DNA of 64,000 nucleotides from Planctomycetota bacterium (lineage in GTDB: Bacteria > Planctomycetota > Planctomycetia > Pirellulales > UBA1268): the NCBI GenBank assembly GCA_016872555.1, contig VGZO01000014.1:4834-68833 (forward strand). The letters are read 5' to 3'. Positions 7,810 through 26,438 of this stretch are shown piece by piece. A program made the position numbers and the translations under genes. Position 1 is the stretch's first letter. The number at the start of each line of letters is the position of its first letter. The notes under the pieces are model-generated. The model saw only the letters and a list, made by a program, of their open reading frames with translations, was not told the DNA's origin and did not search any database.

Positions 7810-8146
7810 AAGGTCACCGGGAAAGCTGGCGGAAGCGGCGGGAACACCCGAGCCCCAAACTACAGCCGGAGGGCGGGCTCTGCGACGGAGAACCGTGGCG
7901 GCCGGCCACGCCCTCTCGAGGGCCGCCTTGCGGGCAGCGGCGGCCCGAGGCAGGGCGGACCGACGAGCCGTCGGGCCGCAACGCTGTCGCGGTGCCTGCA
8001 GAGCATCCTGCCGCCATGCGGTAAGACACTTCCAGGGAGGGGCTCGGCAAGCTACCTTCGGTCGCACATCGGCCGGGCCGAGGCCTGGCACGATTCGGAA
8101 GGTCCGGTATTCTCCGCTCCGTCGGACCGCCACTCGAAGGCACGGA

Positions 8147-9984: not shown

Positions 9985-11853
9985 TCAGGGGGTTTCAGGG
10001 GCCGGTCCGTCGCCGTCGGCGCGGAGGACGATGCAGGCCAGATCACCGGTCGAGTTGCGGAGCGGCGCGGCGGTGTAGCCGAGCTCGACGAGCGCCTCTT
10101 CGAGGCCCCGGCCGCGGTCGGGGAAACCGTTGCGGTTGACGTAGATCGCCGCGAAGCCGAGACGCCTCAGTTCATCGACGGCCGCCCGGGCGTTGCCCCG
10201 GTTGATGCGGATCACCCCCGCCTGCTGGTCGATCGTCGCCCCCTCGAAGAGCTTCGCCTGGAGCGCCGGCTGCCACTTCTCGCGCTCCCGGCCCTTCATC
10301 GAGCCGAACGAATAGCGGAGGTTTTTGGTGAACAGGTAGGGGCGGAAGTGGTCGTACGGCGGCACGCCGGGGATCGGTGCTTCGGGAAAGTCCATCACGG
10401 GTAGCTGGAACACCATCGCCCCGGGAGGTAGCGCCGCCTCCATCGTGGCGGCAAACTCACGGTCGCCATCGACGGCGCGGGTGATCACGGATGCTTCCTC
10501 GGCGGTCGGTGCCCGGGGAATCTGGTCCGCGACGATCACCAGGCAGGTCACCGCGGCCGCAGCAAGCACGCGCCAGTCTGCCGTGTCACCGGATGGCCCT
10601 CGGGACGCAGTCCGTTGCCGTGCTGACAAAGCTCGCGCCGCCCACAACAGCGTGATCGCCAGGATCACGACGCTGTATCGGCAGCCGCCGCGGAACATCG
10701 TGAAACCGGTCGTGGCTGCGAACAGTGCATTCAGACCGCCGGTGGTGAACATCAGCACCAACCACAGGACCTGCCAGGCCTCCATCGGCACCTGCTTCTC
10801 GCGGCCGCTGACCATGTCGCGGACGGCGGTGGCGACCAGCGCGACCAGGCAGGCCAGGCCGACGATCCCCTGGTATGACGCCCCCTCGTCGAGCAGTGGG
10901 GCGACCTGGCGGTGGGCCGTGGCGAAGTTCGCCAGCGCGTCCCAGCGGTGTGTCAGCGGCGGGATGAACAGGTCCTTGACCTTCAGCCCGTAGATCTCGA
11001 GCCACTTGTATTCACGGACCAACGCCCCGCTGTTGGAACCGTTGGCGAGCCTGTAGGTCCAGGTGTCGACGTTCATCAGGGCGAAAGCGAGCGCCGCCGC
11101 CCCGATCACCGCCAGGGCGGCCAGCAGCGGTGGCCACCGCCGGGTGCGGAGAAACTGCAAGCCGGCGCCGAGGAGGGTGAGTTGGCACAAGGCATTGGTG
11201 AAGTAGGGGTTGTGGAGGCCGGTCAGGAATCCGATCCCACAGGCGACCCAGAACCGCCGCGACCCGGGGGCGATACCCGGCTCCGTCGACACCCAGCGCC
11301 ACACGGGGAGGAACAGCGGCACCTGCCAGACCCAGGCGCAGGTGATGTGGTACGGCGACTGGGCGAAGATGAACGGGCAGACGCCGAAGGCGAGGGCTGC
11401 CGTGAACGCCCATGGCAGGGTGCAGTCCGAGACCCGGGCGACGGCGTAGAACACCAGCGCCGCGAGGACATGGCCCGCGACCATCGCCAGGTTGAGTCCG
11501 GCGAACAGTCCGAACAGCCGGGCGAGCAGGCCGAACACGGCGACCTGCAATTCCTCGACCAGCGGCCAGTCGTTCCAGTTGGCCGCGTGAGGAGCACCGA
11601 GATCTGCCGCCTGCTTCCAGGCCAGCGGCCACCACTCCCCGTTGGCCGCCATCTTCATCATGGCCAGGGCATGGATGACGTCCGATTTCTCCGGTTCGAG
11701 ATACGCGGTCGGTCGCGACAGTGCCCCCGCCGACCAGACGCCGTTTGCCGAACACCATGCGATGCCGACGATGAAGATCAGGAGGGCGAACGGCCCCCAC
11801 GTCAGCAGCGAGTTCTCGGCTCGATTGTTCGCCATGGCTGCAGGTCTGCCCAT
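9985..11853 (-). CDS. large polytopic membrane protein with a C-terminal soluble domain (possible GT-C-type transferase; function unknown)
   Basis: 622-aa ORF. It has roughly 11 hydrophobic segments over the first ~400 aa, then a ~200-aa hydrophilic domain (PPYDHFRPYLFTKNLRYSFGSMKGREREKW...). Composition is coding-like and I recognise no family motif with confidence. Confidence 0.6.
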   Translation of the reverse strand: MGRPAAMANNRAENSLLTWGPFALLIFIVGIAWCSANGVWSAGALSRPTAYLEPEKSDVIHALAMMKMAANGEWWPLAWKQAADLGAPHAANWNDWPLVEELQVAVFGLLARLFGLFAGLNLAMVAGHVLAALVFYAVARVSDCTLPWAFTAALAFGVCPFIFAQSPYHITCAWVWQVPLFLPVWRWVSTEPGIAPGSRRFWVACGIGFLTGLHNPYFTNALCQLTLLGAGLQFLRTRRWPPLLAALAVIGAAALAFALMNVDTWTYRLANGSNSGALVREYKWLEIYGLKVKDLFIPPLTHRWDALANFATAHRQVAPLLDEGASYQGIVGLACLVALVATAVRDMVSGREKQVPMEAWQVLWLVLMFTTGGLNALFAATTGFTMFRGGCRYSVVILAITLLWAARALSARQRTASRGPSGDTADWRVLAAAAVTCLVIVADQIPRAPTAEEASVITRAVDGDREFAATMEAALPPGAMVFQLPVMDFPEAPIPGVPPYDHFRPYLFTKNLRYSFGSMKGREREKWQPALQAKLFEGATIDQQAGVIRINRGNARAAVDELRRLGFAAIYVNRNGFPDRGRGLEEALVELGYTAAPLRNSTGDLACIVLRADGDGPAPETP

Positions 11854-12474: not shown

Positions 12475-13134
12475 ATGGGCGTGGAAATCGACCTGCTTGT
12501 GAATTATCCCCGGCCCGACCGAGACGTCGCGGCCCGGGCCGCGGCGAAGACGGAGGAGGACCGCGCCATCGCCCGGCGCTTCGACCGGGAGTTCTTCGAC
12601 GGCGACCGGCGGACGGGCTACGGCGGATTCTCCTACAATCCCCGATTCTGGCAGCCGACGGTCCCGGTGTTCCAGCGGCATTTCGGGCTGACCGGCGATT
12701 CGTCGATCCTCGACGTGGGCTGCGCCAAGGGATTCATGATGCACGATTTTGCGGAGTTGATCCCCGGCATCACCGTCAAGGGGATCGACGTCTCGACCTA
12801 TGCCGTTGAGAACGCGATCCCGTCCATGCGGTCCCATGTGCAGGTGGCCGACGCGCGGGCGCTCCCCTTCGCCGACCGGTCCTTCGACGTGGTGATCTCG
12901 ATCAACACCATCCATAACCTGGAGATCGACGGCGTGAAGCAGGCGCTCCAGGAGATCCAGCGGGTGCAGCGCCGCGGCGCCTTCATCACGGTCGATGCCT
13001 GGCGCGACGCCGCCGAAAAGGAGCGGATGGACGCCTGGAACCTGACCGCGAAGACCATCCTCTCCGTTTCCGGCTGGCAGGCCCTGTTCGCGGAGGTCGG
13101 CTACACCGGGGACTACTTCTGGTTCATCCCATGA
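12475..13134 (+). CDS. class I SAM-dependent methyltransferase (type common in O-antigen/glycan loci)
   Basis: ILDVGCAKGFMMHDF (motif I), FDVVISINTIHNL, and an N-terminal NYPRPDRDV...FDREFFDGDRRTGYGGFSYNPRFWQP block. GGAGA lies 9 nt upstream of the ATG. Confidence 0.85.
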   Translation: MGVEIDLLVNYPRPDRDVAARAAAKTEEDRAIARRFDREFFDGDRRTGYGGFSYNPRFWQPTVPVFQRHFGLTGDSSILDVGCAKGFMMHDFAELIPGITVKGIDVSTYAVENAIPSMRSHVQVADARALPFADRSFDVVISINTIHNLEIDGVKQALQEIQRVQRRGAFITVDAWRDAAEKERMDAWNLTAKTILSVSGWQALFAEVGYTGDYFWFIP

Positions 13135-14129
13135 CGCCAACGGTCTCCGGCCAGGACGTGCCTCGCGAGGCGTTGCTCCGGTCAATGAAGCGGTTGCGGC
13201 GCCTCGAGGAGGCGATCGCCGAACGGTATCCCGAGGGCCGGATGCGGTGCCCGGTGCACCTGTCCATCGGCCAGGAGGCGGTCAGCGCCGCCGTCGGCCT
13301 GGCGTTGCATCCGGAAGATCTGGCCGTGAGCGGGCACCGCGCGCACACGCACTACCTCGCCAAGGGCGGGTCGATGCCCCGCCTGGTCGCCGAGATCTAC
13401 GGCAAGCAATCCGGGTGCAGTCGCGGCAAGGGCGGATCCATGCACCTCGTCGACGAGGCGGCGGGATTCAAGGGAAGCACAGCGATCGTCGGCGGCACGA
13501 TCCCCGTGGGCACGGGTCTGGGGCTGTCGCTGGCGACGCGCGGCTCGCCACAGGTGGCCTGCGTATTCTTCGGCGACGCGGCCGTCGAAGAAGGCGTATT
13601 CTTTGAGTCGGTCAACTTCGCGGCCATCCGGCGCCTTCCCGTGCTCTACCTGTGCGAAAATAACTTCTACTCGGTCTACTCCCCGCTCCGCGTGCGGCAG
13701 CCGGAGGGGAGGCGAATCCACGAGATGGTCGCGGGGCTCGGCCTGTCGGCCGCGTACGGCGACGGCAACGACCCCGAACTGGTCTACCAGATGACGGGAG
13801 ATGCCCTGGCATCCATCCGGTCCGGCGCAGGCCCGGTGTTCCTCGAGTTCACGACCTATCGCTACCGCGAGCACTGCGGCCCGAATTTCGATAACGACCT
13901 GGGCTACCGCACCGAGGCCGAGTTCCTCGAGCGGCGGTCGGCCGATCCGGTGGAGACCTACGAAATGCGACTGCTCGAGTCGGGAGTCGTGACGCGGGAG
14001 TCGTTGGCCACCATGGACGCGGCCATTGCGGCGGAGGTGGCTGACGCCTTTGCCTTCGCGGAAGCGTCGCCGTTTCCCGACCGGTCCGAGGCCTTCAGCG
14101 ACCTGTACGTGGGGGAGGACGGCGCGTGA
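13131..14129 (+). CDS. ThDP-dependent 2-oxoacid/acetoin dehydrogenase E1 component, alpha subunit
   Basis: HLSIGQEAVSAAVG, GKGGSMHL, GGTIPVGTGLGL, FFGDAAVEEGVFFESVNFAAIRRLPVLYLCENNFYS (the ThDP GDG-N motif region). The ATG overlaps the upstream stop (ATGA). Confidence 0.9.
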   Translation: MTPTVSGQDVPREALLRSMKRLRRLEEAIAERYPEGRMRCPVHLSIGQEAVSAAVGLALHPEDLAVSGHRAHTHYLAKGGSMPRLVAEIYGKQSGCSRGKGGSMHLVDEAAGFKGSTAIVGGTIPVGTGLGLSLATRGSPQVACVFFGDAAVEEGVFFESVNFAAIRRLPVLYLCENNFYSVYSPLRVRQPEGRRIHEMVAGLGLSAAYGDGNDPELVYQMTGDALASIRSGAGPVFLEFTTYRYREHCGPNFDNDLGYRTEAEFLERRSADPVETYEMRLLESGVVTRESLATMDAAIAAEVADAFAFAEASPFPDRSEAFSDLYVGEDGA

Positions 14130-15187
14130 CGCGGGTGCGCAGCTATGCGGCGGCGATCGCCGAGGCCACCGCCATCGCCATGGAGATCGACGAGCGGATC
14201 CTCTGTTTCGGTCTCGGCGTGGATGATCCCAAGCGGATTTTCGGGACCACCGCAGGGCTCGTGGAACGGTTCGGGCCCCGCCGCGTGTTCGACATGCCGA
14301 CCTCGGAAGCGGCCATGACGGGGGTGGCGATCGGCGCGTCGCTCGACGGCGCCCGCTGCCTGATGACGCACCAGCGGCTCGATTTCTTCCTGCTCACGCT
14401 CGACCAGATCGTCAATAACGCGGCGAAATGGCGGTACATGTTCGGGGGCCAGGCCGCGCCGGTGAGGATCGTGGTGCGGCTCATCCTGGGCCGGGGATGG
14501 GGGCAGGGGCCGACGCACTCGCAGAACCTGCAGGCGTGGTTCGCCCACATTCCGGGACTGAAGGTGGTCATGCCGGCCTCCCCGGCCGATGCCAAGGGCC
14601 TGCTCTTGTCGGCGCTCTTCGACGACAATCCGGTGCTCTTCCTGGAGCATCGCTGGTTGCACCAGATGCAGGGGGAACTTCCCGAGGGGGACCACCGGGT
14701 GCCGATCGGGAAGGCCGCCGTGGTGGCGGAAGGCAGCGACCTGACGATCGTCACGATGTCCTCCATGACCGTCGAAACGCTGCACGCGTTGCCTGCCCTG
14801 CAGGAGGCTGGTATCTCGGCCGAGGTGATCGATCTGCGGTCGATCCGGCCGCTCGACCTCGACACAGTGCTGGCCTCGGTGCGGAAGACCGGTCGGCTGC
14901 TCGCCGTGGATACGGCGAGCCCGGTGTGCTCGGTGGCCAGCGAGATCGTGGCCACGGCGGCCTGCGAATGCTTCGACCGGCTCGAGGGGCCGCCGCGGCG
15001 GCTGGCATTGCCCGACTTTCCGGTGCCGACGAGCCCGGCCCTGACCGACGGCTTCTATCCGCGGGCGGAGCAGATTGCCGTGGCCGCGGCCGGGATGCTC
15101 GGCCGCACGGTGGACGTCGCGGAGATCGTCGCCTCGCGGACGTCGCCGCACGACGTGCCGGGCGATTGGTTCAAGGGGCCGTTCTAA
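14126..15187 (+). CDS. ThDP-dependent dehydrogenase E1 component, beta subunit
   Basis: FGLGVDDPKRIFGTTAGLVERFGPRRVFDMPTSEAAMTGVAIGASLDG, DQIVNNAAKWRYMFGG, IDLRSIRPLD. The GTG start overlaps the alpha-subunit stop (GTGA). Confidence 0.9.
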   Translation: MTRVRSYAAAIAEATAIAMEIDERILCFGLGVDDPKRIFGTTAGLVERFGPRRVFDMPTSEAAMTGVAIGASLDGARCLMTHQRLDFFLLTLDQIVNNAAKWRYMFGGQAAPVRIVVRLILGRGWGQGPTHSQNLQAWFAHIPGLKVVMPASPADAKGLLLSALFDDNPVLFLEHRWLHQMQGELPEGDHRVPIGKAAVVAEGSDLTIVTMSSMTVETLHALPALQEAGISAEVIDLRSIRPLDLDTVLASVRKTGRLLAVDTASPVCSVASEIVATAACECFDRLEGPPRRLALPDFPVPTSPALTDGFYPRAEQIAVAAAGMLGRTVDVAEIVASRTSPHDVPGDWFKGPF

Positions 15188-15199
15188 GGAGCATTTTCG

Positions 15200-16075
15200 A
15201 TGACCGCTGAAGGACTTATAGAGGCTTCAGAGACGCTCGGTTCAATGCTCACGGCGCTGCCGGACATGATGGCCATGCACGCGCCCGGAACGCCGACCTA
15301 TCAGTTCCTCAATGTGGTGGCACGGCACGCGGTTGCCCGGGCATTTTCGTCGGTCGATCCGCCGGCGGTAGAGTTTGGCGAGTTCGGCCGCATCGTGTTC
15401 CCGTTTCGCCGCATGGGTGCGATCACGTCGCTTGACCTGTTCGGCCTGGACGAACTGGTGATTTTCGGGTTTTACCTGCGTCAGCGTGGCCGATACCGGA
15501 GGGTACTCGACGTCGGTGCCAACGTTGGGCTGCATTCGCTGCTACTGTCCCGCTGCGGTTTCGAGGTGAATTGCTTCGAGCCCGATCCCCTGACGTGCGC
15601 TGCGCTGCGGCGCACCCTGTCCGCGAACGACTGTCGGACGGTGCATGTGCATGAGGCGGCAGTCTCGTCGCAGACGGGGACCACGGAGTTCGTCCGGGTG
15701 TTGGGCAATACGACTGGCAGCCACGTCGCGGGCGCAAAGAAGCAACCGTATGGCGACCTCGAGCGGCTGGTCGTCAAGACCGTCGCGATCGGCGAACTCC
15801 TGGCGGATGTCGACTTCATGAAGCTCGACGCTGAGGGTCACGAGGCCGACATACTCTGCTGCACGACCGCGCAGCACTGGGCCGGCACGGAGGCGATCGT
15901 GGAGATCGGAAGCCCCGAGAACGCGGTGGCCGTCCATCGACACATGACGGGGCTTGGTGTAAGCCTGTTCGCGCAGCAGCGGGGCTGGCATCGCGTCGAT
16001 ACTGTCGCGGACATGCCACGGTCCTACCACGACGGCTCCGTCTTCATCTCGAACAACAAGGTCATGCCATGGTAA
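15200..16075 (+). CDS. FkbM-family methyltransferase
   Basis: VLDVGANVGLHSLLLSRCGFEVNCFEPDP...VHVHEAAVSSQTGTTEF...VDFMKLDAEGHE is the characteristic FkbM pattern. Confidence 0.85.
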   Translation: MTAEGLIEASETLGSMLTALPDMMAMHAPGTPTYQFLNVVARHAVARAFSSVDPPAVEFGEFGRIVFPFRRMGAITSLDLFGLDELVIFGFYLRQRGRYRRVLDVGANVGLHSLLLSRCGFEVNCFEPDPLTCAALRRTLSANDCRTVHVHEAAVSSQTGTTEFVRVLGNTTGSHVAGAKKQPYGDLERLVVKTVAIGELLADVDFMKLDAEGHEADILCCTTAQHWAGTEAIVEIGSPENAVAVHRHMTGLGVSLFAQQRGWHRVDTVADMPRSYHDGSVFISNNKVMPW

Positions 16076-16884
16076 ATTGCATCCCAGAGGTGTTCATCGC
16101 GGGTGCCAATGCTGACATCGGCAATGCACTGCTAAGGAACTTCGCAGCCGACGGATGGCGCGTGGGCGGCACATATCGAAACACAAGCCCAGAACTGACA
16201 GGAGCGCCAGACTCCGCAGAACCCTTCTTCATCGCCTGCGATTTTTCGCTGCCCGGATTCGCGGGCGAAGTCGCTGAACGTTATACGTCAGCGGGCCGCG
16301 AGTGGGACGTCTTCATTTCGGCGGTCGGCACGATGCTGCCTGTCGGACCCTTCATGGAGACACCGTTCGCCGACTGGGAGCAAGGGCTGCGGGTCAATCT
16401 GTTGTCACAGCTCGAGTTGGTCCACAGCCTCTATCCGTACCGCCGTCCCGACAAAGTCGCGCATGTGGTCTTGCTGGCCGGTGGCGGCACAAACGGCCCG
16501 TTTCGCAACTACTCCGCCTACTGTCTGTCGAAGATCGGCCTGATCAAGGCCTGCGAACTGCTCGACGACGAGTGCGCTGACCTGAATGCGTTCATTGTGG
16601 GCCCGGGCTGGGTGCGGACGAAGATTCACGCCGAGACGCTCGTGAGCGGTGCTCGCGCAGGGGAGAATCAGGCGCGGACGCGCGACTTCCTCGACTCGGG
16701 CGATTCGGGAACGGCCCACGACGTCATCTATCGGTGCATCCGGTGGGGCATCGAGGCCGGGCGGGAGGTCGCCGGAGGCCGCAACTTTTCGGTGGTTCAC
16801 GACCCGTGGAGAGAGGCCGGATTCTCAGCACGATTGAAGGCCGATGGTAATCTCTGCAAACTGCGGAGGAGTAATCCACAGTGA
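16069..16884 (+). CDS. short-chain dehydrogenase/reductase (SDR)
   Basis: VFIAGANADIGNAL (glycine-rich NAD(P) motif) and YSAYCLSKIGL (YxxxK). The start overlaps the FkbM gene end by 7 nt. Confidence 0.8.
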   Translation: MVNCIPEVFIAGANADIGNALLRNFAADGWRVGGTYRNTSPELTGAPDSAEPFFIACDFSLPGFAGEVAERYTSAGREWDVFISAVGTMLPVGPFMETPFADWEQGLRVNLLSQLELVHSLYPYRRPDKVAHVVLLAGGGTNGPFRNYSAYCLSKIGLIKACELLDDECADLNAFIVGPGWVRTKIHAETLVSGARAGENQARTRDFLDSGDSGTAHDVIYRCIRWGIEAGREVAGGRNFSVVHDPWREAGFSARLKADGNLCKLRRSNPQ

Positions 16885-16921
16885 TCGTTCGAAAGCGAGG
16901 CCGGCGTCCGGGAGTCATCGC

Positions 16922-18709
16922 ATGAAGCTTTCCGACTACGTTGCCGCGTTCCTCGCCCAACAGGGCATCCGACACGCCTTCGCCATCGCTGGCGGAGCCT
17001 GCCTGCATCTGATCGACTCAATCGCCGCCCGCACCGACATCGCCTACGTGTGTCCGCATCACGAACAGGCGGCGGCGATGGCCGCGGACGCATATTCCCG
17101 CGTCTCGGAGCGGCCTGGGGTGGCTATCACGACGAGCGGCCCCGGAGCGACGAATCTGATCACGGGCATTTGTTGTGCCTACTACGATTCCGTGCCGGTA
17201 CTCTTCATCACCGGCCAGGTCGCGACGTTTCGCCTCAAGCAGGACACGGGCGTGCGGCAGTTCGGCTTCCAAGAGACCGACATCGTCGGCATGTGTCGTT
17301 CCGTGACCAAGTATGCCGTGATGGTGGAGGATCCGCTGAGGATTCGCTACGAACTCGAAAAGGCGGTGGCCCTGGCCACCTCGGGCCGGCCCGGGCCGGT
17401 ACTGGTCGATATCCCGGACGACCTGCAGCGTCGCGACATCGACCCGGGAACGTTGGAAGGTTACTCGCCGCCACCGCCGGCTTCTTCGTCGGCCAACCAT
17501 GCCGGTCAGGCCCGGGAGGCGCTTGCGTTGCTACGCCGTGCCCGCAGGCCGATCGTGATCCTCGGCTGGGGTATCCATCTCGCGAATGCCGCTGCGGATG
17601 CGGTGACCTTCTTGCGCCTTAGCGGGCTGCCCGTCGTGCCAACCTGGGGGGCCATCGATCTCGTCGCCCACACGCCGGACAACTTCGTCGGCACCTTTGG
17701 GCTACATGGAACGCGATACGGCAACTTCGCGGTGCAAAACTCCGACTGCATCCTGGCGATCGGTACCAGGCTCGATACCCACGAAACGGGAAGCCCTTTG
17801 AGCAGCTTCGCGCGCGAGGCTCGGAAAATCATCGTTGACATCGACCGCGCTGAACTCACCAAGTTCCCGAGATTCGGAATGCCGGTCGATCTACCCATCG
17901 AGGCGGACGCCGGAGATTTCCTCCGCGCCCTGTCGTTGGAACTCCCGCAGGCAGAAATGCCCGACATCACGCCATGGCGGCTGCAGATCGCCGAATGGCA
18001 GAGGGAGTTCGAAATCTGTCCTGCTAGCAACTTTAACGAGCCCACGCCGAACCCCTATGCAGCGATCAAGGCCCTTTCACGGGCCGCGGCCGCCGATGGC
18101 ACCGTCGTGATCGACACGGGCTGCGTGATCGCATGGTTCATGCAGGCCTGGGAGCCACGGCCTGGTCAGCGGATATTCAGCGCCCTCAACAACACACCCA
18201 TGGGATACGCGCTTCCCGGCGCAATCGGCGCTAGCTTCGCGCTCGATCGTGCGACGGTACTCTGCCTGATCGGCGACGGCGGGTTGATGATGAACATTCA
18301 GGAACTCGCGACCATCATGCACCACGCCCTACCAATCAAGATCATCGTGTTCAACAACCGTGGATACAGCATGATCCAGCAGACACAGGATCAGTGGCTT
18401 GGATCCCGCTACCATGCTTCCTCGAAGGACGGCGGGTTGTCGTTTCCAGACTTCGTCGAGGTTGCAAGAGCGCATGGTATCCCGGCCGCGAGAATAGACA
18501 GGAGTGTGACGATGCCCGACGTAATAGCTCAGGCCCTGGCCCACGACGGGCCGTTCCTTTGTGATCTGACACTTGATCCGGCTGAGCGGGTGGTTCCGCA
18601 GGTCGTGTACGGACGGCCAATCGAGGATGCGGGGCCCTTGCTGAGTCGAGACCTGTTTCTGCGAAACATGCTTGTGAAGCCGCTTGATATCTCTCTGCTG
18701 GGTGAGTGA
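16922..18709 (+). CDS. acetolactate-synthase-like ThDP-binding enzyme (three-domain IlvB/AlsS/YerE family)
   Basis: HHEQAAAMAADAYSRVSERPGVAITTSGPGATNLITGICCAYYDSVPVLFITGQV, FQETDIVGM, and the C-terminal ThDP motif LIGDGGLMMNIQELATI...IIVFNNRGYSMI. The ATG at 16922 is in frame with the track ORF. Confidence 0.9.
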   Translation: MKLSDYVAAFLAQQGIRHAFAIAGGACLHLIDSIAARTDIAYVCPHHEQAAAMAADAYSRVSERPGVAITTSGPGATNLITGICCAYYDSVPVLFITGQVATFRLKQDTGVRQFGFQETDIVGMCRSVTKYAVMVEDPLRIRYELEKAVALATSGRPGPVLVDIPDDLQRRDIDPGTLEGYSPPPPASSSANHAGQAREALALLRRARRPIVILGWGIHLANAAADAVTFLRLSGLPVVPTWGAIDLVAHTPDNFVGTFGLHGTRYGNFAVQNSDCILAIGTRLDTHETGSPLSSFAREARKIIVDIDRAELTKFPRFGMPVDLPIEADAGDFLRALSLELPQAEMPDITPWRLQIAEWQREFEICPASNFNEPTPNPYAAIKALSRAAAADGTVVIDTGCVIAWFMQAWEPRPGQRIFSALNNTPMGYALPGAIGASFALDRATVLCLIGDGGLMMNIQELATIMHHALPIKIIVFNNRGYSMIQQTQDQWLGSRYHASSKDGGLSFPDFVEVARAHGIPAARIDRSVTMPDVIAQALAHDGPFLCDLTLDPAERVVPQVVYGRPIEDAGPLLSRDLFLRNMLVKPLDISLLGE

Positions 18710-18710
18710 C

Positions 18711-19757
18711 ATGCGTGGTGTCGTTCTTACACGTCCGGGAGGCGACCTCGAGATTGCGACCGATCTCGAATTTCCGGAGCCTATGCATGGCCAGGTAAGC
18801 GTGCAGGTGGCGTTCAGCGGGGTGTGCCACAGCCAGCTCATGGAGGCCCGCGGGCTGCGCGGCGAGGATCGCTACGTGCCCCACCTGCTCGGACACGAGG
18901 GCACTGGTGTAGTCCGAGCGATCGGCTCCGGCGTAACAAAGGTAGCGGCCGGCGACCGGGTGGTGCTGACCTGGATCAAAGGCGAAGGATTGGACGTCGG
19001 CGGCGGCCGTTACGGCTGGAATGGACGCCGCGTCAATGCCGGCGCGGTGACGACGTTCAACGAGGTGGCCGTTGTCGCCGAGAATCGGGTCGTACGGCTG
19101 CCGGCCGGCGTTCCCATGGATGTTGGTGTGCTCCTCGGCTGCGCGTTGCCGACGGGTGCGGGTGTCGTCTGCAATACCCTCCAGCCGGAGCCAGGGCGAA
19201 CGCTGGTCGTTTACGGCCTAGGTGGCGTGGGTATTTGCGCGCTGGCGGCTGCGAGTCGTTACGGCCTGAAGCGACTGATCGCTGTCGATGTCGAGCCGGG
19301 CAAGCTGTCATTAGCGCATGATTTCGGAGCGACCGACGTCATTGACGCGTCCCGCGAGGAGCCGGTCGAGGTCATTCGCGGGCTCACTGACGGGCGGGGC
19401 GCGGACTACGCTGTGGAGGCGGCCGGCGGCACCGCAACCATCGAGCGCGCGTTCTCATCGGTTTGTGATGATGGCGGCCGATGCGTGTTCGCCTCCCATC
19501 CGCCCGCAGGGAAGCGAATCTGCCTCGATCCGCACGCATTGATTCGAGGCCGCCGGATTGAGGGCAGTTGGGGCGGGGGGTGCTTGCCCGACCGGGACAT
19601 CCCACTCCTGGCAAGCCTGTGCCTCGACCCCGGGCTGCCCTTCCGTTCGCTGGTCCGCGACCGATACCCGCTTGCCGAGGTAAACCGGGCGCTCGCCGAC
19701 CTCGAGACACGTCGGGCCATGCGGCCGCTTCTGGTGGTCGCCCCCGAGCTAGAGTAA
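18711..19757 (+). CDS. zinc-dependent medium-chain alcohol dehydrogenase/reductase
   Basis: SGVCHSQL, LGHEGTGVV and GDRVVL (zinc ligands), then GLGGVGICALAAA (Rossmann fold). It starts 2 nt after the ALS-like stop. Confidence 0.88.
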   Translation: MRGVVLTRPGGDLEIATDLEFPEPMHGQVSVQVAFSGVCHSQLMEARGLRGEDRYVPHLLGHEGTGVVRAIGSGVTKVAAGDRVVLTWIKGEGLDVGGGRYGWNGRRVNAGAVTTFNEVAVVAENRVVRLPAGVPMDVGVLLGCALPTGAGVVCNTLQPEPGRTLVVYGLGGVGICALAAASRYGLKRLIAVDVEPGKLSLAHDFGATDVIDASREEPVEVIRGLTDGRGADYAVEAAGGTATIERAFSSVCDDGGRCVFASHPPAGKRICLDPHALIRGRRIEGSWGGGCLPDRDIPLLASLCLDPGLPFRSLVRDRYPLAEVNRALADLETRRAMRPLLVVAPELE

Positions 19758-19761
19758 AGGT

Positions 19762-20487
19762 TCACATAACGCGATGCGGCCGCTTCGCGAACTCCCTACG
19801 ACGGGCGAACTTGATCTCGTAGACGAGTCGCAGGTAGGAGCGCACCACCTCTGTGAGGTTGCGGAGTGACAGTGACGTGCTCCCCGCGAGCCCCTTCTGC
19901 ATGTACCCTGCCACCTCGTAATAGCTAGCACCCGAGCAGAGCAACTTGATCGTCGCCTCGACCACGATGCTGAAGCGATTCGCTCGCAAATTGATACGGC
20001 GGAGCCTGTCCGTGGGATAGACGCACGGGCCATTAATGTACTGCACGTAGATACCGAACGTGATCATGTAGATCGCCCCGAAGATCAGGGAGATCACGTT
20101 CCGCGCGACTCCCCTCGCCTCCTTGTTTACGAAGTAGCTCAACACCATATCGGCCCGGTAGGCGTTCTTGAACAGGGCGCAGAGCAGGTCGAGTGAGATG
20201 TCGTTGTCACCTGGAACGATGAGAAAACGGTCGCACGTGGCGATCGCCAAGGCATCGCGAAAGCCGGTGCCCAACCCCTGGTTGGTCGCGTGCTCGACCA
20301 CCGTCACGTTTGCCATGCGGCTGGCAAAATCGGCGGCGATCGCGCCGGTTGCATCTCGGCTGCCGTCGTTCACGATGATGATCTGCAGGTCCGTGCAGCC
20401 GGCCCTGCCGGCCGCGGCCATGACGGTGTCTACGGTCGCCGCCAAATTGGCGGCCTCGTTGAACGCCGGAATGAACACAGAAATCAC
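19762..20487 (-). CDS. GT2 glycosyltransferase of the polyprenol-phosphate (Dpm1/ArnC/GtrB-like) type
   Basis: ISVFIPAFNEAANL, IIIVNDGSRDAT, LIVPGDNDISL, followed by a hydrophobic stretch VISLIFGAIYMITFGIYV. The GTG start overlaps the upstream stop (GTGA). Confidence 0.85.
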   Translation of the reverse strand: MISVFIPAFNEAANLAATVDTVMAAAGRAGCTDLQIIIVNDGSRDATGAIAADFASRMANVTVVEHATNQGLGTGFRDALAIATCDRFLIVPGDNDISLDLLCALFKNAYRADMVLSYFVNKEARGVARNVISLIFGAIYMITFGIYVQYINGPCVYPTDRLRRINLRANRFSIVVEATIKLLCSGASYYEVAGYMQKGLAGSTSLSLRNLTEVVRSYLRLVYEIKFARRREFAKRPHRVM

Positions 20488-20996
20488 GCTCCTGCCCCCA
20501 GCATGACCCGCTTGGCCAAGCGGAACAGTTTGGCGACGTAGAGCATCCGCCTGCGCCCGGTGTAATAGCGGCCATCCTCGTACGTCAGTTGGCCGCTGCG
20601 GGTAAGCCGCCCGAGTCGGATGTCGAGGATCTTGGCGGCGTCGTAGAACTGTAGGATCTCGGGCTCGCTAAGTGGTCCGCGGGCGGCGAGCTCCTGCAAG
20701 ATCCTGATGCGGACGGACGCCTCGGGGATGTGGACGAGGTGGAAGAAGACATATGAGGCGGATGCATAGGTGAGAAATGCGGCCGCAACGGTCGCAGCCC
20801 TTTCGGTGGCAGGCAGGGCTGATCCGCAGACGACCGACGCCATGATGAACGCCACGCAACCGAGGACGAAACTGCCGGCCAGGCTGCGGACGATGCTCGT
20901 GCAAAGGCGGGTACGGAGCAGGATCACGTTGGTCGCTACGTTGACGACGAACGCAATCCATGGAAACGCCGGCAGATACCAGCCGCAGGAAAGCAT
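20484..20996 (-). CDS. small membrane protein with a C-terminal winged-helix-like domain (paralog A; unknown function)
   Basis: 170 aa. It has three hydrophobic segments, then SVRIRILQELAARGPLSEPEIL...RLGRLTRSGQLTYEDGRYYTGRRR. The architecture is shared with the next gene. Confidence 0.6.
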   Translation of the reverse strand: MLSCGWYLPAFPWIAFVVNVATNVILLRTRLCTSIVRSLAGSFVLGCVAFIMASVVCGSALPATERAATVAAAFLTYASASYVFFHLVHIPEASVRIRILQELAARGPLSEPEILQFYDAAKILDIRLGRLTRSGQLTYEDGRYYTGRRRMLYVAKLFRLAKRVMLGAGA

Positions 20997-21014
20997 GAAG
21001 AGACTTCTCTCCTG

Positions 21015-21512
21015 TCAGCCGGCCAAGCCCCGGCGGCCTACAAGGCGGTGGTACGACAAGAATCCGTGGAGGAACTTTCGGCCTCTGGCCGTAATCCGCA
21101 GCCGCCCATCAGCACGTTCCACCAGGCCATCAAGTTCAAGGCCCCGAGCGCGATTAAGCACGAACTTATCATCGTTGATGATGGCGGCCAGATCGTCCCG
21201 GCTGGCCCCGTCACCACCCCGCTCGTCAACGCACGTCACGATCAGTGAGGAGGGGCTCTCGGATTCCAAGGCAGGCAACGATATCAGATAACTGGCCACC
21301 ATGGTGCAAAAAAGGAGCCAAGCCGCGGTCAAGTCTGCGGCGGCCGGGGCAGGGCAACGCGCGCGCGCTGCCCAGACACCGACCGCTGCTCCTAGGAGCG
21401 CCGCGAGCGGCACCAGCCGCGCCGGACTACGCGGCCGCAGCATGCGCCAAGCGGCCACATGGATGGCGACGGTCGCCAGCAGGCCGATAATCGGGGCAAG
21501 GAGCGAAAACAC
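21015..21512 (-). CDS. small membrane protein with a C-terminal winged-helix-like domain (paralog B; unknown function)
   Basis: 165 aa. It has three hydrophobic segments, then SPSSLIVTCV...SRDDLAAII...RARGLELDGLVERADGRLRITARGR. It has the same layout as paralog A. Confidence 0.6.
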   Translation of the reverse strand: MFSLLAPIIGLLATVAIHVAAWRMLRPRSPARLVPLAALLGAAVGVWAARARCPAPAAADLTAAWLLFCTMVASYLISLPALESESPSSLIVTCVDERGGDGASRDDLAAIINDDKFVLNRARGLELDGLVERADGRLRITARGRKFLHGFLSYHRLVGRRGLAG

Positions 21513-21527
21513 GGCGCGAAGTGTCCC

Positions 21528-22526
21528 TTACAACTTATGAACGTAGTCTGCGGGAATCATCCGCAGCCGGTCGAGGTTGATCTTCATCCAGTCGATCGTT
21601 TCACCGATTACGTCGGCCACCGTGAGCTTCGGCTCCCAGCCGAACTCGCCGCGGGCCTTCGTGCAGTCGAGCAGATAGGCCGGATCCTGGGCGAGCCGCG
21701 GCGGCGTGGACTCGACGGCGTCGTCGAACCGTGCCCCGAGCTGCCGGCAGATCTCCTCGACGACCTCGCGGATCGTCTGGTTGGTGCCGGTGGCGAGGTG
21801 GTAGACGTCGCCGGCGATCCCCCGACGGGCCACGGCGAGCGTGCCCCGGGCGACGTCGGCCATGTGGATGAAGGAGCGGACGCTCGTGCCACCCCCTTCG
21901 AGCTTGAGCCGGCGCCCCGTGAGGATGCAGAACACCGTCCGGGGGATGATCCGGTACAGCGGCTGTCCTGGCCCGCAGACGTTGGCCGCCCGCGTGAACG
22001 CGACGGGGAAGCCGTAGGCCTTCCGGTAGGCCTGGAGGTTCATGTCGCAGGCCGCCTTCGACACGGCGTAGGGGGTGCTCGGGTTGAACGGCGCCGTTTC
22101 CTTCACCAGGCCGCTCGTGCTGCCGTAGACCTCGGGGGTAGAGATCTGGACGAACTTCTTGAGAAACTCGGCCTTCTTCAGCCGGTCGACCAGCCGGGCC
22201 GTGGCGACGACGTTGGTCTGGTACCAGTGCTCGGGATGGTCCCAGCTCTGGGCGACCATGCTCTGTGCGGCGAAGTTGATGACGTAGTCCGGCCGGGCCG
22301 CGTCGATCACGGCGCCGATGCCCTCGAGATCACGGTTGAAATCGAGGGCGTGGAACGTGAACCACTCGTGCGGTGCCCACCGGTAGGGGAGGAGCGCTTC
22401 GTCGGGCTCCGCGGAGCGGCTGATCCCGATCACCCGTGCGCCGTCGGCGAGCGCCTCGGCCACGAAGGTGGCGCCGGAGAACGAGTTGCTCCCGAGGACG
22501 ACGAAGGTTTCGGACGGCGGGGCCAT
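21528..22526 (-). CDS. NDP-sugar 4,6-dehydratase-type extended SDR
   Basis: VVLGSNSFSGATFV (NAD fold), ISTPEVYGS and YAVSKAACD (the S/T-Y-K catalytic set laid out as in RfbB-type dehydratases), NVCGPGQ. Confidence 0.85.
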   Translation of the reverse strand: MAPPSETFVVLGSNSFSGATFVAEALADGARVIGISRSAEPDEALLPYRWAPHEWFTFHALDFNRDLEGIGAVIDAARPDYVINFAAQSMVAQSWDHPEHWYQTNVVATARLVDRLKKAEFLKKFVQISTPEVYGSTSGLVKETAPFNPSTPYAVSKAACDMNLQAYRKAYGFPVAFTRAANVCGPGQPLYRIIPRTVFCILTGRRLKLEGGGTSVRSFIHMADVARGTLAVARRGIAGDVYHLATGTNQTIREVVEEICRQLGARFDDAVESTPPRLAQDPAYLLDCTKARGEFGWEPKLTVADVIGETIDWMKINLDRLRMIPADYVHKL

Positions 22527-22530
22527 GGGC

Positions 22531-23550
22531 TCACTTCAGGTGGATGGCCTTCATCGTCTTGATGTTGGAATACCTGGTGTCGGTCATCGAGTCGGGGAGC
22601 TTGCCGGCCTTGAAGGCCCGGATCAGGTCGCGGGCCCCGTCTTCGACGGTGTGCCGCGGCGTAAAGCCGAGCACCCGGCGGATCTTGTCGGAGTTGATCC
22701 GGTAGGAGCGGATATCGTCCGACGGGGTGGTGACGATCTCGATCTCCCCCTTCTCCGGCATCTCCTCGCGGACCACGTTCCGCACCACCTCGGCCGTCTC
22801 GGCGACGGAATAATTCTGGTAGCCGGCGTTGAAAATCTGGCCGGCGATCGTGTCGTCGGGCGCCTCGAGGAGGAGGCAGTACAGGTCGACCATGTCCTGC
22901 ATGTGGAGGTTGGGCCGCATCTGCACGCCGCCGAACACCGTGATCCGGCCGTTGTTGACCGCGTGATTGGTGAGGATGTTGACCGTCAGGTCGAGTCGCT
23001 GGCGTGGCGAGTAGCCGCAGATCGTCGCCGGTCGCACGGCGACCGTGGTGAACGACGGCGCTTGCTCGGCCAGCAGCAGCGGCTCACAGGCGGCCTTGTA
23101 CTTGTTGTAGAGCGACACCGGTACCAGCGCGTGCTCTTCGGTGACCTGAGGCGAGTCGCTGACGCCGTAGACGCTCCCCGAGGAGGCGAAGACGAACCGG
23201 CGGACCCCCGCCGCCTTCGCCGCCTTCACGGTCGGGCCGAAGGAGTCGAGATTCACCGACTTGGAAAGGTCGGGGTCGAGTTCGACGCTCGGGTCGTTGG
23301 AGATGCAGGCCAGGTGGATGACCGCATCAACGCCGCGGACGGCCCGCTGCACCGCTTCGTCATCGCGGACGTCGCCCGCGATGATCTCGAGCCGCGGATG
23401 GCCAGCGACGGCCGCCAGGGCCTCCGCACCGTAGATGAACAGATCGAACACACGGACGCGGTAGTCGAGCTCGAGGAGCCGCGGCACGAGCACCGCCCCC
23501 ACGTATCCCGCGCCGCCGATCACCGCCACGCTGTCGAAACGCCGTGCCAC
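22531..23550 (-). CDS. NAD-dependent NDP-sugar epimerase/reductase (extended SDR)
   Basis: VAVIGGAGYVGAVLV, FASSGSVYG, YNKYKAACE (YxxxK), RPATICG. It starts 4 nt before the dehydratase gene. Confidence 0.88.
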   Translation of the reverse strand: MARRFDSVAVIGGAGYVGAVLVPRLLELDYRVRVFDLFIYGAEALAAVAGHPRLEIIAGDVRDDEAVQRAVRGVDAVIHLACISNDPSVELDPDLSKSVNLDSFGPTVKAAKAAGVRRFVFASSGSVYGVSDSPQVTEEHALVPVSLYNKYKAACEPLLLAEQAPSFTTVAVRPATICGYSPRQRLDLTVNILTNHAVNNGRITVFGGVQMRPNLHMQDMVDLYCLLLEAPDDTIAGQIFNAGYQNYSVAETAEVVRNVVREEMPEKGEIEIVTTPSDDIRSYRINSDKIRRVLGFTPRHTVEDGARDLIRAFKAGKLPDSMTDTRYSNIKTMKAIHLK

Positions 23551-23575
23551 GTACGCGCACTCCCGTCGCCGCGGA

Positions 23576-25105
23576 TCAGTTCTTGAGCAACGACTCGATC
23601 TGCCGTGTTAGCGCCACGCGGTCGATCGGGTCGCGGTTGGCCACGCTCGCCACCGCCAGCGCGCCGGCGGCGTTTCCCGCCAAGCCGACGACCTCGAGCG
23701 GCGCGTTCTGGACCGCCACGAGCGCCGACACCGAGAGAAAGGCGTCGCCGGCTCCGATCCGGTCGACGACCTTCCCCGCCACCGCCGGAATCTCGATCGG
23801 GCTGCCGAAGCGCTCGCTGCACAGGCAGCCGTGCCGGCCGCGGGTCACGGCCAGCCGGCGGCAGCCGAGCGCTCCCTGGACTTCCCGGGCGAGCTGCCGG
23901 ATGTCGCCGTGCCGGTCACGGGCCTCGATGCGGATCTCGTTCTCGGTGGCGGTCATGTAGTCCGCGGCCGGATACTTGGAGAGGGCGTGGTGGCCGAGAT
24001 TCCCGGCGTTGCACTGGGCGTTGACCGCCAGGAAGCGGGCCTGCTCCCGGATCAACCGCCGCGTCCGCTCGCCGAGCATGGCGTGGCCGAAGTCGATGAC
24101 GATCACCAAATCGTAGCCGGGAATCTCCCGCTCCAGCAGCCGGCAGACCTCGTCCTCCTCGGCGGCGGAGGGTGCCGCGTCGTTGATCTCGTAGATCTCG
24201 AGGAGCTTGAGAAAGAAGTAGTGCTCGACGAGCCGTTGCTTGAGGATCGTCGGCGAGTCGCGGCGCGTGATGAACGTCGGCCGGACGTTGGGCCGGAGCT
24301 TCTCGGCGATGAACGCGGCGTGCGACGGGCTGTCGCCGATCTGGGCGATCACGCCGACCTCGTTGCAAAATCCGGCGACGTGGTTGGCGGCGGCGAGGAT
24401 GCCCCCGGCGAAGCGCTCGGCGGACTGCCGCCTCACGACCATCGTCGGCTCCTTCGACGACTTCCCGATCGCCTCACAGTACACGTACTCGTCGATGATC
24501 GGCTCGCCGACGAGCAGCACGCGGAGGCCGCGGGCGCGCTCGAGGTAGCCGAGCACCTCGTCGGCCGGATGGCGCTGCGAGAATCCCGCCAGGTACGACT
24601 GCACCTCCGGCGCGAGCGTGCTCATGTGGCGGTTGATGAGCCGCGTCGAGCTGAAGACGTCGCCGGCGGTGAAGACGATCCGCCCGCCGACTGCCACGAC
24701 CGCCCGCTCCTCGTCGTTGATCTTGCCGGTCACGTCCTTGGACATGTCGGCGTAGTCGGGGCCTTTGACGTAGCAATCGGGGCGGATCAGGGCGATCGCC
24801 TCGACGGCCGTCGGGTGCGGGTTGATCGCGACGAAGTCGACACACTCCAGGCCGGCGATGACCTCGGCGCGGAGCTGCTCGGGGAAGGCCGGACGGTGGG
24901 GACCCTTGTTGACGAACCGGTCCGTCGTGAGGGTCACCACGAGCACGTCGCCGAGGGCCTTCGCCTCTTCGAAGTAGCGGAGGTGGCCGACGTGGAGCAG
25001 GTCGAAGACGCCGTGGCAGTGGACCACGCGCTGGCCGGCCTTGCGGCAGGAATCGAGGACACGGGCCAGTTCGTCCAGACTCTTGTGTTTGCCCGACTGC
25101 TTCAT
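23576..25105 (-). CDS. bifunctional sugar-phosphate nucleotidyltransferase / PfkB-family sugar kinase (HldE-like, domain order reversed)
   Basis: N-terminus: VVHCHGVFDLLHVGHLRYFEEAKALGDVLVVTLTTD...PDCYVKGPDY (cytidylyltransferase HxGH fold, as in HldE domain II). C-terminus: LLVGEPIIDEY...VDRIGAGDAFLSVSAL (PfkB kinase, as in HldE domain I). Confidence 0.88.
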   Translation of the reverse strand: MKQSGKHKSLDELARVLDSCRKAGQRVVHCHGVFDLLHVGHLRYFEEAKALGDVLVVTLTTDRFVNKGPHRPAFPEQLRAEVIAGLECVDFVAINPHPTAVEAIALIRPDCYVKGPDYADMSKDVTGKINDEERAVVAVGGRIVFTAGDVFSSTRLINRHMSTLAPEVQSYLAGFSQRHPADEVLGYLERARGLRVLLVGEPIIDEYVYCEAIGKSSKEPTMVVRRQSAERFAGGILAAANHVAGFCNEVGVIAQIGDSPSHAAFIAEKLRPNVRPTFITRRDSPTILKQRLVEHYFFLKLLEIYEINDAAPSAAEEDEVCRLLEREIPGYDLVIVIDFGHAMLGERTRRLIREQARFLAVNAQCNAGNLGHHALSKYPAADYMTATENEIRIEARDRHGDIRQLAREVQGALGCRRLAVTRGRHGCLCSERFGSPIEIPAVAGKVVDRIGAGDAFLSVSALVAVQNAPLEVVGLAGNAAGALAVASVANRDPIDRVALTRQIESLLKN

Positions 25106-25298
25106 CTATGGTCGCCGGCAGTGGTCACCGGCAGGGCCGGAGTGAGGCAGGGATTGCAGGGAACGGACCCGATTCGTTTGTATTGCACCACAGGCCGATT
25201 GCAAGCCGGCACCCGTGGCGCCGTGCCCGGTCGGTCCGCCTGCCGCGGACCGAGGGGTGGGAAGTCCCGCCGCCCCCGACACCTCCCAGGATCGAGCG

Positions 25299-26438
25299 AT
25301 GGCCAACCGCAAACCCTGCATCGGCGTGCTCACCGGCGGCGGCGATTGCCCCGGGCTCAACGCCGTGATCCGCGCGGTGGTCAAATCGGCGACCCGCCTG
25401 GGATATGACTGCGTCGGCTTTCTGCGCGGCTACGAAGGACTCGTCGATCCGGTCAGCTACATGCCGCTCGACCGGCAGAACACGTCGGAGATCCTCCTCC
25501 GCGGCGGGACGATCCTCGGCTCCACCAACAAGGGCCGGTTCACGGCGCTGGTCGGGCACGGCGAGCGGGTCCGCATCGACCCTGACCTTCTCGCCCAGGC
25601 CGGCGACACGCTCCGCCGGCTCCGCGTCAGCGGCCTGATCTGCGTCGGCGGCGACGGCTCGCTGGCGATCGCCCAGCAGCTCTTCGAGCACGGATTGCCC
25701 GTCGTCGGGGTTCCGAAGACGATCGACAACGACCTCGGCGCGACCGCGTTCACGTTCGGCTTCGACTCGGCGGTGGCCACGGCGACCGACGCCCTCGACC
25801 GGCTCCACACCACCGCCGCCAGCCACGAACGGGTGATGGTCCTCGAGGTGATGGGGCGCCACGCCGGCTGGATCGCCCTCCACGCCGGCATTGCCGGCGG
25901 CGGCGACGTGATTCTGATCCCCGAAATTCCCTGGACGTTCGAGGCGGTCTGCGCGCATGTTTCGGCGCGCGAGGCGGAGGGAAGGCGGTCGACGCTGATC
26001 GTCGTCGCCGAGGGGGCGGCGCTCCCCGACGGCGGTCTCGTCCACGAGGCGACTGCCGACGCCCAGCGCCAGGTGAAACTCGGCGGGATCGGCCAGCGCG
26101 TGGCCGCGGAACTCGGCGCTCGGCTCGACCGCGAGGTCCGCGCCGTCGTCCTCGGCCACCTTCAGCGCGGCGGCACGCCGACGCCGTTCGACCGCCTCCT
26201 TGCCACGCAGTTCGGCGCCCATGCGGTGGGCTTGGTACACGACGGGCGGTTCGGAGAGATGGTCCGCTACCGGCCGCCACACATCGAGGGGGTGCCGATC
26301 GCCACCGCGATCCACGAATTGTCGGTCGTCGATGCCGCGAGCTCGGCGGTGCGCGCCGCCCGCGCGCTGGGGGTGAGCTTCGGCGATGGCGTCGCGGCGA
26401 CGGAGACGGCTGCTCGCGGCACCGCCGCGCGTGGCTGA
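25299..26438 (+). CDS. pfkA: 6-phosphofructokinase
   Basis: [63 protein letters not shown]. The ATG at 25299 is in frame with the track ORF. Confidence 0.9.

Follow-up and report, generated by a model that had tools for sequence, protein, structure and literature searches.

What do two small membrane proteins do when their genes lie directly ahead of that of a glycosyltransferase? The question is raised by a 64,000-nucleotide stretch of a Planctomycetota bacterium (contig VGZO01000014.1, positions 4,834 to 68,833), called the window here. In it, two genes, A and B, are followed by the gene of a family 2 glycosyltransferase (GT2). The initial annotation held that A and B are paralogs coupled to a GT2 of the polyprenol-phosphate type, and that they could be a new paired flippase or adaptor, or a membrane-tethered regulator. 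The answer offered here, with a likelihood that approaches but falls short of even, is that A and B pair up as a heterodimer and serve as the membrane adaptor or anchor of a polyprenyl-phosphate GT2 that has no anchor of its own. The trio is composed of the following genes:

21512-21015, minus strand: gene A, an open reading frame (ORF) of 165 amino acids (aa) with a GTG start, encoding a predicted membrane protein with three transmembrane (TM) helices and a winged helix
20996-20484, minus strand: gene B, an ORF of 170 aa with an ATG start preceded by AGGAGA
20487-19762, minus strand: the GT2 gene, 241 aa, with a GTG start and a PF00535 match at E 8e-19

A and B are consecutive genes of the annotated sizes and places, but the order of the lengths had been reversed: the upstream protein A has 165 aa and the downstream protein B has 170 aa. 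The reported overlap of the B stop codon with the GT2 start is confirmed by reading the sequence ('...gca gga gcg tga ttt ctg'). The GTG of the GT2 gene (20487-20485) and the TGA of B (20486-20484) share GTGA at 20484-20487. A protein identical to B carries the annotation 'hypothetical protein' in a Planctomycetota metagenome-assembled genome.

The GT2 belongs with the enzymes that the initial annotation had named. A profile of 27 GT2 orthologs, searched against the PDB, finds Pyrococcus furiosus DPMS best (5mlz, E 2.7e-21, profile positions 4-227 of 255). The next matches are ArnC (9hwj, 9bhc, and 8vxh, about 1e-18, positions 6-218) and GtrB (5ekp, 4e-18). Full-length matches are polyprenyl-phosphate enzymes, while other GT2s match just the first ~100 residues of the profile. 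In the 'PGDN' stretch, G93 and D94 are invariant in the family, and PpgS is a weak NCBIfam match of the window protein. These comparisons support a GT2 of the polyprenyl-phosphate type (Dpm1/ArnC/GtrB), predicted to be made up of a GT-A catalytic domain with a DxD-type motif and interface helices.

The window GT2 and the alignment of its family profile both stop where the TM domain of DPMS starts. The sole hydrophobic stretch of the window GT2, residues 130-151, is located in the interface-helix region, and no TM segment is predicted in 38 of 46 family members. Judged from its sequence, the enzyme lacks a membrane anchor of its own, unlike DPMS, ArnC, and GtrB, which possess C-terminal TM helices.

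A and B share the architecture that had been proposed for them, three hydrophobic segments and a soluble tail. In Kyte-Doolittle windows, the segments lie at about 1-25, 30-51, and 59-84 in A, and at about 8-28, 31-65, and 70-88 in B; the TM helices of A are placed at about 1-25, 30-52, and 58-83. AlphaFold2 models, built from shallow family alignments, agree and show a predicted winged helix in the tail. The model of A (pLDDT 82.7) has three long helices, followed by a helix, a short strand, two helices, a beta-hairpin, and a final helix. The model of B (pLDDT 72.2) has the same order, with TM3 running directly into helix 1 of the soluble domain, and B ends in an amphipathic C-terminal helix after a basic winged helix. 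About half of each protein is a predicted cytoplasmic winged helix.

Foldseek searches of the PDB with both models return winged-helix domains exclusively, and weakly (E 0.016-0.6). The matches include MexR, MepR, HucR, SqrR, PagR, HxlR, and the dimerisation domains of O-methyltransferases; the top matches of A are all MarR-type winged helices at E of at least 0.016. The membrane part has no Foldseek match in the PDB. The predicted C-terminal fold has the helix-strand-helix-helix-hairpin order of MarR/ArsR-type winged helices, but here it is attached to three TM helices. Scores of the Pfam helix-turn-helix (HTH) models stay under the cut-offs for A, B, 36 B-family, and 30 A-family proteins. 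The models support winged helix as the fold class of the soluble domain; no family membership is supported. PDB sequence searches with narrow and broad profiles of A and B were also tried and gave chance-level values (Stf76 0.33, ArcB 0.04, a macro-domain phosphatase 0.01, Sso10a 0.11).

Both proteins are probably oriented with the N-terminus outside and the C-terminus inside, and would form a parallel pair. This orientation follows from the positive-inside rule, given an arginine-rich loop 1 and basic C-terminal halves. In B, residues 92-170 hold 15 Lys/Arg against 8 Asp/Glu; the winged-helix part of A is near neutral (14 Lys/Arg, 13 Asp/Glu).

In both families, conservation peaks where TM3 reaches the cytoplasm and joins the winged helix. 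The winged helix ranks next, and the outer loop and N-terminus vary most. The junction consensus is Y-x-Y-F-H-F-V-N-x-G-E-x-x-x-R-I-R-x-L-x-E-L in B and A-Y-x-I-T-Y-S-A-x-E-x-D-S-P-S-L-V-I in A. Conserved residues of B are N19, S38, G46, Y82, F85, R96, R98, E102, Y118, R127, and R130. The A subfamily conserves H18, W22, P27, Y75, and the junction motif E83-x-D-S-P-S. Polar and small residues are conserved within the TM helices as well (N19, S38, G42, and G46 in B; H18 and W22 in A). Most A-family proteins end in a conserved ...Y-R-x-L-L-x-x-x-K-G-G, where the window protein (residues 155-165) has R-G-L-A-G. It is curious to find two conserved glycines at the very end of a cytoplasmic domain that is tethered to the membrane.

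The paralogy of A and B is not visible to BLASTP (best E 23) and emerges from profiles. Narrow profiles of close homologs align in hhalign over 138 colinear columns, with a probability of 82.7% and E 1e-5. Broad profiles, made from 36 B-family and 30 A-family sequences of many phyla, raise the values to 97.6% and E 3.9e-12 over 159 colinear columns that cover membrane and soluble parts. A local B-family hidden Markov model (HMM) also matches A-family proteins at E 1e-7 to 1e-4. The profile-profile scores and HMM cross-matches place the relationship well beyond chance, and the comparison of sequences marks A and B as real, if distant and ancient, paralogs, as the initial annotation had claimed. 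The tail motif that it described is likewise shared: hhalign aligns RLGRLTRSGQLTYEDGRYY of B with RARGLELDGLVERADGRLR of A, giving R-x3-L-x3-G-x-(L/V)-x3-D-G-R. The third position, described as Gly or Leu, fails for A, which has Arg. In the models, the motif falls on the wing and helix 3 of the predicted winged helix.

No Pfam or NCBIfam model scores above threshold for A, B, 36 diverse B members, or 30 A members. GtrA-type proteins (GtrA, GtcA, Rv3789; PF04138, the GtrA/DPMS TM domain) are the small membrane component of three-component systems of a GT2 and a GT-C enzyme. PF04138 matches none of the same proteins, and hhalign against the GtrA domain alignment gives less than 1% probability. 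GtrA has about 120-140 aa and four TM helices without a soluble domain, whereas A and B have three TM helices and a predicted winged helix. ArnE and ArnF resemble A and B in being a small paralogous membrane pair encoded with an ArnC-type GT2, and with the GT-C enzyme ArnT. They are four-TM SMR/EamA-like proteins without cytoplasmic domains, in contrast to the three TM helices and soluble domain of A and B. The view that A and B resemble neither GtrA nor ArnE/ArnF therefore stands, on silent Pfam models and the hhalign result. Pfam likewise gives no SMR/EamA/Multi_Drug_Res-type, MATE, or Wzx match, and none to DPM2 or DPM3.

The family is far larger than word-seeded searches suggest, which returned just 12 and 9 close relatives of the two proteins. 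An exhaustive HMM search with the B-family profile finds at least 1,705 clusters (50% identity) at E up to 1e-3. At E up to 1e-10 there are 980, nearly all of 160-190 aa. A scan of one genome per species provided 66 loci, numbered with the prefix L. Neighbourhoods were read with local HMMs and clustering, with Pfam labels, and some counts were made over 71 loci. The 66 loci span about ten phyla, namely Omnitrophota, Nitrospirota, Nitrospinota, Desulfobacterota/'Deltaproteobacteria', Elusimicrobiota, Planctomycetota (including Scalindua), and others. Further hosts are Latescibacterota, TA06, Vicinamibacterales, a Levybacteria bin of the Candidate Phyla Radiation (CPR), and a Woesearchaeota bin (DPANN).

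Pairing is nearly universal. Of the 66 loci, 64 contain A, and in 63 of them A is the gene immediately before B, in the same orientation. In most loci the A stop and B start adjoin or overlap. The two loci without A are L052, where B is at the contig end, and L070, where B is truncated. The large and strictly paired A/B family is new, in that it has no Pfam or NCBIfam model; the type of system, three-component glycosylation with a lipid carrier, is already known. The only split pair is found in a Nitrospirae bin (L006:2601-6001), where a YfhO-like GT-C-type gene of 1,083 aa lies between A and B. In the Levybacteria (L007) and Woesearchaeota (L021) bins, the A-B pair occurs with GT2 and radical SAM genes, which implies horizontal spread of the module or mis-binning. 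Two apparent fusions were rejected. In L069, a seeming 'A fusion' of 847 aa arises because the ORF extends upstream through DNA of high GC content, and a B::UPF0102 (YraN-like nuclease) ORF at L068:4119-5129 is probably a read-through or an assembly artefact.

The pair is tied to glycosyltransferases across phyla. In 35 of the 66 loci, an orthologous GT2 gene (about 255 aa) precedes the pair in the same orientation, and in nine it adjoins A. Between it and A there is most often a single radical SAM/SPASM gene (367 aa), a gene for a B12-binding radical SAM enzyme, or both. In L009, L027, and L030, the end of the GT2 ORF overlaps the start of the A ORF (GT2 ends at 5491, A starts at 5488). The most divergent locus, L001, holds GT2, A, and B alone amid unrelated genes for a Na/Ca exchanger, RACo, a BamD-like protein, and DNA ligase, and on this account the trio behaves as a module. 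The coupling to a GT2 in the initial annotation is borne out by this linkage, which extends to GT-C-type membrane proteins. The contrary pattern, a pair that is widespread without glycosyltransferase neighbours, is not what the 66 loci show.

One clade of B is fused to GtrA. At L067:5977-6930, B continues into a GtrA/DPMS TM domain (PF04138, E 1e-16, residues 200-310 of 317). At least 18 further clusters have this B::GtrA architecture, with 312-319 aa and 45-70% identity (P0171-P0188; L072:8001-8957; L074:8001-8948). The hosts are Omnitrophica and Sedimentisphaerales. Their loci keep A and the GT2, in the order GT2, a B12-binding radical SAM gene in some, A, B::GtrA, and, further on, PMT_2. 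A local HMM of the GtrA domain, a narrow model, picks up no additional GtrA, whether in the 71 loci or in the window. By its domain composition, this clade shows B apparently acting with a canonical small membrane component and not in its place, and the fusion ties B firmly to the handling of polyprenyl-phosphate sugars. GtrA would begin in the cytoplasm, which is compatible with a cytoplasmic winged helix of B. The source names of these proteins, 'GtrA family protein' or 'putative flippase GtrA', conceal the B-type N-terminal half.

These results are best accommodated by a membrane adaptor or anchor. In favour of this reading are a GT2 without an anchor, genes that are translationally coupled, conservation centred on the cytoplasmic side, soluble domains of substantial size, and the fusion to GtrA. 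A and B would form a parallel heterodimer in the cytoplasmic membrane, with 3+3 TM helices, N-termini outside, and winged helices in the cytoplasm. The heterodimer would be the dedicated membrane subunit of the TM-less GT2, which would move a tailored nucleotide sugar, supplied by neighbouring enzymes, onto polyprenyl phosphate at the cytoplasmic face. Docking of the GT2 at the membrane would use the winged helices and the conserved junction of TM3 with the winged helix. A and B would thereby supply the membrane part that DPMS, ArnC, and GtrB carry in cis, and in other lineages they may also dock the radical SAM tailoring enzymes encoded alongside. Heterodimerisation, topology, docking, and the lipid acceptor are all points that we infer. 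Where no GT2 is nearby, radical SAM genes often adjoin A-B, which is consistent with a scaffold for cytoplasmic enzymes at the membrane.

Similar arrangements are known. DPM1 works with DPM2 and DPM3, and in yeast the role of Dpm3 is filled by the C-terminal TM domain of Dpm1 (PMC7728079). The logic of the DPM system is like the one proposed here, with a TM-less Dpm1-type GT2 and two small membrane proteins, one of which tethers it via a cytoplasmic domain. In mycobacteria, Ppm1 interacts with the membrane protein Ppm2 (PMC3485146) and PpgS acts 'with the assistance of Rv3632' (PMC9671496); in each case an anchor-less GT2 is encoded beside an integral membrane partner, as in the window. Since the TM-less polyprenyl-phosphate GT2s DPM1, Ppm1, and PpgS all depend on partner proteins, separate membrane partners such as A and B have precedent. 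The partners themselves differ. Ppm2, a 6-TM domain, and Rv3632, a small integral membrane protein, are each a single partner without a winged helix, in contrast to the paralogous A/B pair. DPM2 and DPM3, of 84-92 aa with two TM helices each, have no winged helix and, unlike A and B, are not paralogs of each other.

Several points weigh against an adaptor or anchor. The conserved polar and small residues in the TM helices (B N19, S38, G42, and G46; A H18 and W22) would be superfluous in a passive anchor, as would two paralogs retained for so long. No other candidate flippase was found in most loci or in the whole 64-kb window, so that role stays vacant. An orthologous GT2 is absent within 6 kb in 31 of the 66 loci, some of which lie on truncated contigs. 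The winged-helix matches are weak, at Foldseek E 0.016 or worse.

The vacant role leads to an alternative that is possible but doubtful, in which A and B are themselves a new heterodimeric flippase. With six TM helices in total, the pair would carry the polyprenyl-phosphate-linked sugar out of the cytoplasmic leaflet into the outer one, in the place that GtrA, ArnE/ArnF, SMR-like, or MATE proteins take in other three-component systems, and the winged helices would couple it to the synthase. In many loci, A-B has the GT2 on one side and GT-C-type genes on the other (DUF2079, YfhO-like, TPR-polytopic, PMT_2). Other small multi-TM ORFs are rare, with just 8 in 71 loci and none in the 64-kb window. 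The paralogous pair recalls ArnE/ArnF, and the conserved polar and small TM residues also count in favour of a flippase. Known flippase components for lipid-linked sugars are also interchangeable between systems, with direct biochemical proof wanting for all of them (PMC11127046). Conservation, however, is strongest on the cytoplasmic side and least in the outer loop and N-terminus, and half of each protein is a soluble domain that small known flippases do not possess. We know of no lipid-linked sugar flippase with a 3-TM-plus-winged-helix architecture. The lack of GtrA homology and of SMR/EamA, MATE, or Wzx matches speaks against this role too, and GtrA is the usual proposed flippase, so that its fusion to B would be redundant if A and B were one too. 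Of the earlier suggestion of a flippase or adaptor, the flippase is a putative role, and the anchor-less GT2, the cytoplasmic conservation, and the GtrA fusion point at least equally to a pair that docks or anchors the enzyme. The same pair could fill both roles. A previously unrecognised class of translocator, a parallel 3+3-helix pair that takes the polyprenyl-phosphate sugar directly from a synthase docked on its winged helices and flips it, physically coupling synthesis to flipping, is unlikely. If it were true, a coupled synthase-flippase complex would be widespread in Omnitrophota, Nitrospirota, Desulfobacterota, Elusimicrobiota, Planctomycetota, CPR, and DPANN.

The sharp conservation of a polar and charged cluster exactly at the boundary of membrane and cytoplasm could also reflect a membrane-associated chemical step performed by A and B themselves, as more than passive partners, for example binding or modifying the lipid carrier or the lipid-linked sugar. 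The junction motifs (F-H-F-x-N-x-G-E...R-I-R in B, E-x-D-S-P-S in A) would then take part. Such a step would also fit the association of A and B with tailoring enzymes, radical SAM proteins among them, which is seen at loci without an adjacent GT2 as well. It is nevertheless improbable: the proteins are small and similar to no enzyme family, the motif differs between A and B, and no cofactor-binding signature is present. Slightly less probable still is a pair of membrane-tethered winged-helix transcription regulators or sensors that would bind DNA at the membrane and control an envelope-glycan cluster. In structure, the soluble domains come closest to DNA-binding winged helices of the MarR, ArsR, and HxlR types, the cytoplasmic part of B is basic, and R127 and R130 are invariant in its putative recognition helix. 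This role is made unlikely by the position of the genes mid-operon, translationally coupled to enzymes, and by the same enzyme-family neighbours across about ten phyla, including CPR and DPANN, an uncommon pattern for regulators. The proteins have no sensor domain outside the cytoplasm, their outer loops are short and variable, and a GtrA fusion has no regulatory logic. The winged helix of A, moreover, is nearly neutral, and no HTH Pfam model reaches threshold.

In lipid-carrier glycosylation, the passage of polyprenyl-phosphate sugars across the membrane and the retention there of synthases without an anchor are both poorly understood. As the membrane adaptor or anchor favoured here, or as a flippase, A and B are a candidate, open to experiment, for a membrane component that a widespread envelope-glycan pathway has been missing. 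The family is found mostly in uncultured phyla, and a new family model is justified to replace the 'hypothetical protein' labels.

The neighbourhoods of related loci are dominated by sugar and tailoring enzymes. The commonest order is cytidylyltransferase::PfkB with SIS, radical SAM/SPASM, E1 alpha, E1 beta, GT2, radical SAM/SPASM, A, and B. E1 alpha and beta genes are present in 33 of 71 loci. The genes after B vary and include short radical SAM, DUF2079, YfhO-like, TPR-polytopic, another polytopic family, LPG_synthase_TM, DegT aminotransferase, and epimerases. At least one protein with seven or more TM segments is encoded in 45 of 71 loci. GT-C-type genes are clear in related loci (PMT_2, DUF2079, YfhO-like). 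A literature search on DUF2079, radical SAM, and glycosyltransferase together found nothing.

Outside the Planctomycetota clade of the window, A-B is flanked by genes for radical SAM/SPASM (~367 aa), B12-binding radical SAM (~500 aa), and short radical SAM (~287 aa) proteins. These are often nearer to A-B than the GT2 is (e.g., L019:4300-5440 and L025:3932-5428), and the window clade has none. The radical SAM/SPASM neighbours raised an RRE/PqqD-like role for A and B, which was rejected because the predicted winged helix is canonical and helix-first. The PqqD arrangement is strand-first. An LPG_synthase_TM protein (MprF-flippase-like, PF03706) follows A-B in L053:9323-10330, L013, L033, and L054, and is another candidate translocator in these loci.

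In the window, the trio continues a run of sugar genes on the same strand and faces a second block on the other:

21528-22526, minus strand: NDP-sugar dehydratase/epimerase gene (Pfam and NCBIfam)
22531-23550, minus strand: second NDP-sugar dehydratase/epimerase gene (Pfam and NCBIfam), 4 nt from the first
23576-25105, minus strand: cytidylyltransferase::PfkB kinase gene (Pfam and NCBIfam), in the same tightly packed unit
12475-19757, plus strand, convergent to the trio: sugar-tailoring block (Pfam) of a methyltransferase, E1 alpha and E1 beta (thiamine pyrophosphate (TPP)-dependent), an FkbM methyltransferase, a short-chain dehydrogenase/reductase, an acetolactate-synthase-like TPP enzyme, and a zinc-dependent alcohol dehydrogenase

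Gene A starts 15 nt past the stop of the dehydratase/epimerase gene at 21528-22526. No promoter-like site was found in 19000-26000. The only terminator-like matches in this range are two overlapping ones near 23200, inside the second epimerase gene, which is fewer than shuffled sequences give; none was found inside the A-B-GT2 unit. With tight packing, no promoter-like site, and no terminator-like site within A-B-GT2, the minus-strand block from the cytidylyltransferase::PfkB gene to the GT2 gene looks like one operon.

Genes like the set at 21528-25105 recur in related loci. Their predicted role is to make or tailor the nucleotide-sugar cargo. In the cytidylyltransferase::PfkB protein, the cytidylyltransferase domain precedes the kinase domain; E. 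coli HldE has the opposite order. The sugar-tailoring set of the window also adjoins A-B-GT2 in L002-L005, the window's own relatives, and in L067. Its enzyme content suggests an unusual sugar cargo, possibly C2-branched or heptose-derived.

Further from the trio, the window encodes several long proteins that bear on a final transfer step:

3974-6547, minus strand: TPR-polytopic ORF, 7-8 hydrophobic segments, C-terminal TPR Pfam matches
6211-8277, minus strand: second TPR-polytopic ORF with the same features
7895-9388, plus strand: 497-aa ORF with strongly coding-like GC content at third codon positions (0.90), no Pfam match, and no homolog in related loci
9985-11853, minus strand: 622-aa protein with ~9 TM segments, no Pfam match, and no homolog in related loci

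The initial annotation saw every role of an ArnC/ArnEF/ArnT-style pathway in this region, counting three polytopic ORFs as GT-C-like. Two of the three, the TPR-polytopic ORFs, are homologous (BLASTP 1e-35 to 1e-9) to a family, cluster c19, that follows A-B in loci of Omnitrophota and other phyla (L014, L019, L034, L061, and L063). No GT-C Pfam model matches the polytopic ORFs of the window, and the protein at 9985-11853 is unmatched. That all pathway roles are present is thus plausible and partly shown. The consensus of the TPR-polytopic family has 'FVWDD' near the N-terminus, which may correspond to the acidic motif of GT-C loop 1. The ORFs at 3974-6547 and 6211-8277 are candidate GT-C-type transferases that would use the lipid-linked sugar. 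A PDB profile search with this family was swamped by TPR matches and was uninformative on the membrane domain. The longest forms of the two ORFs overlap by 337 nt (6211-6547), so translation of the downstream gene probably begins later than 6547.

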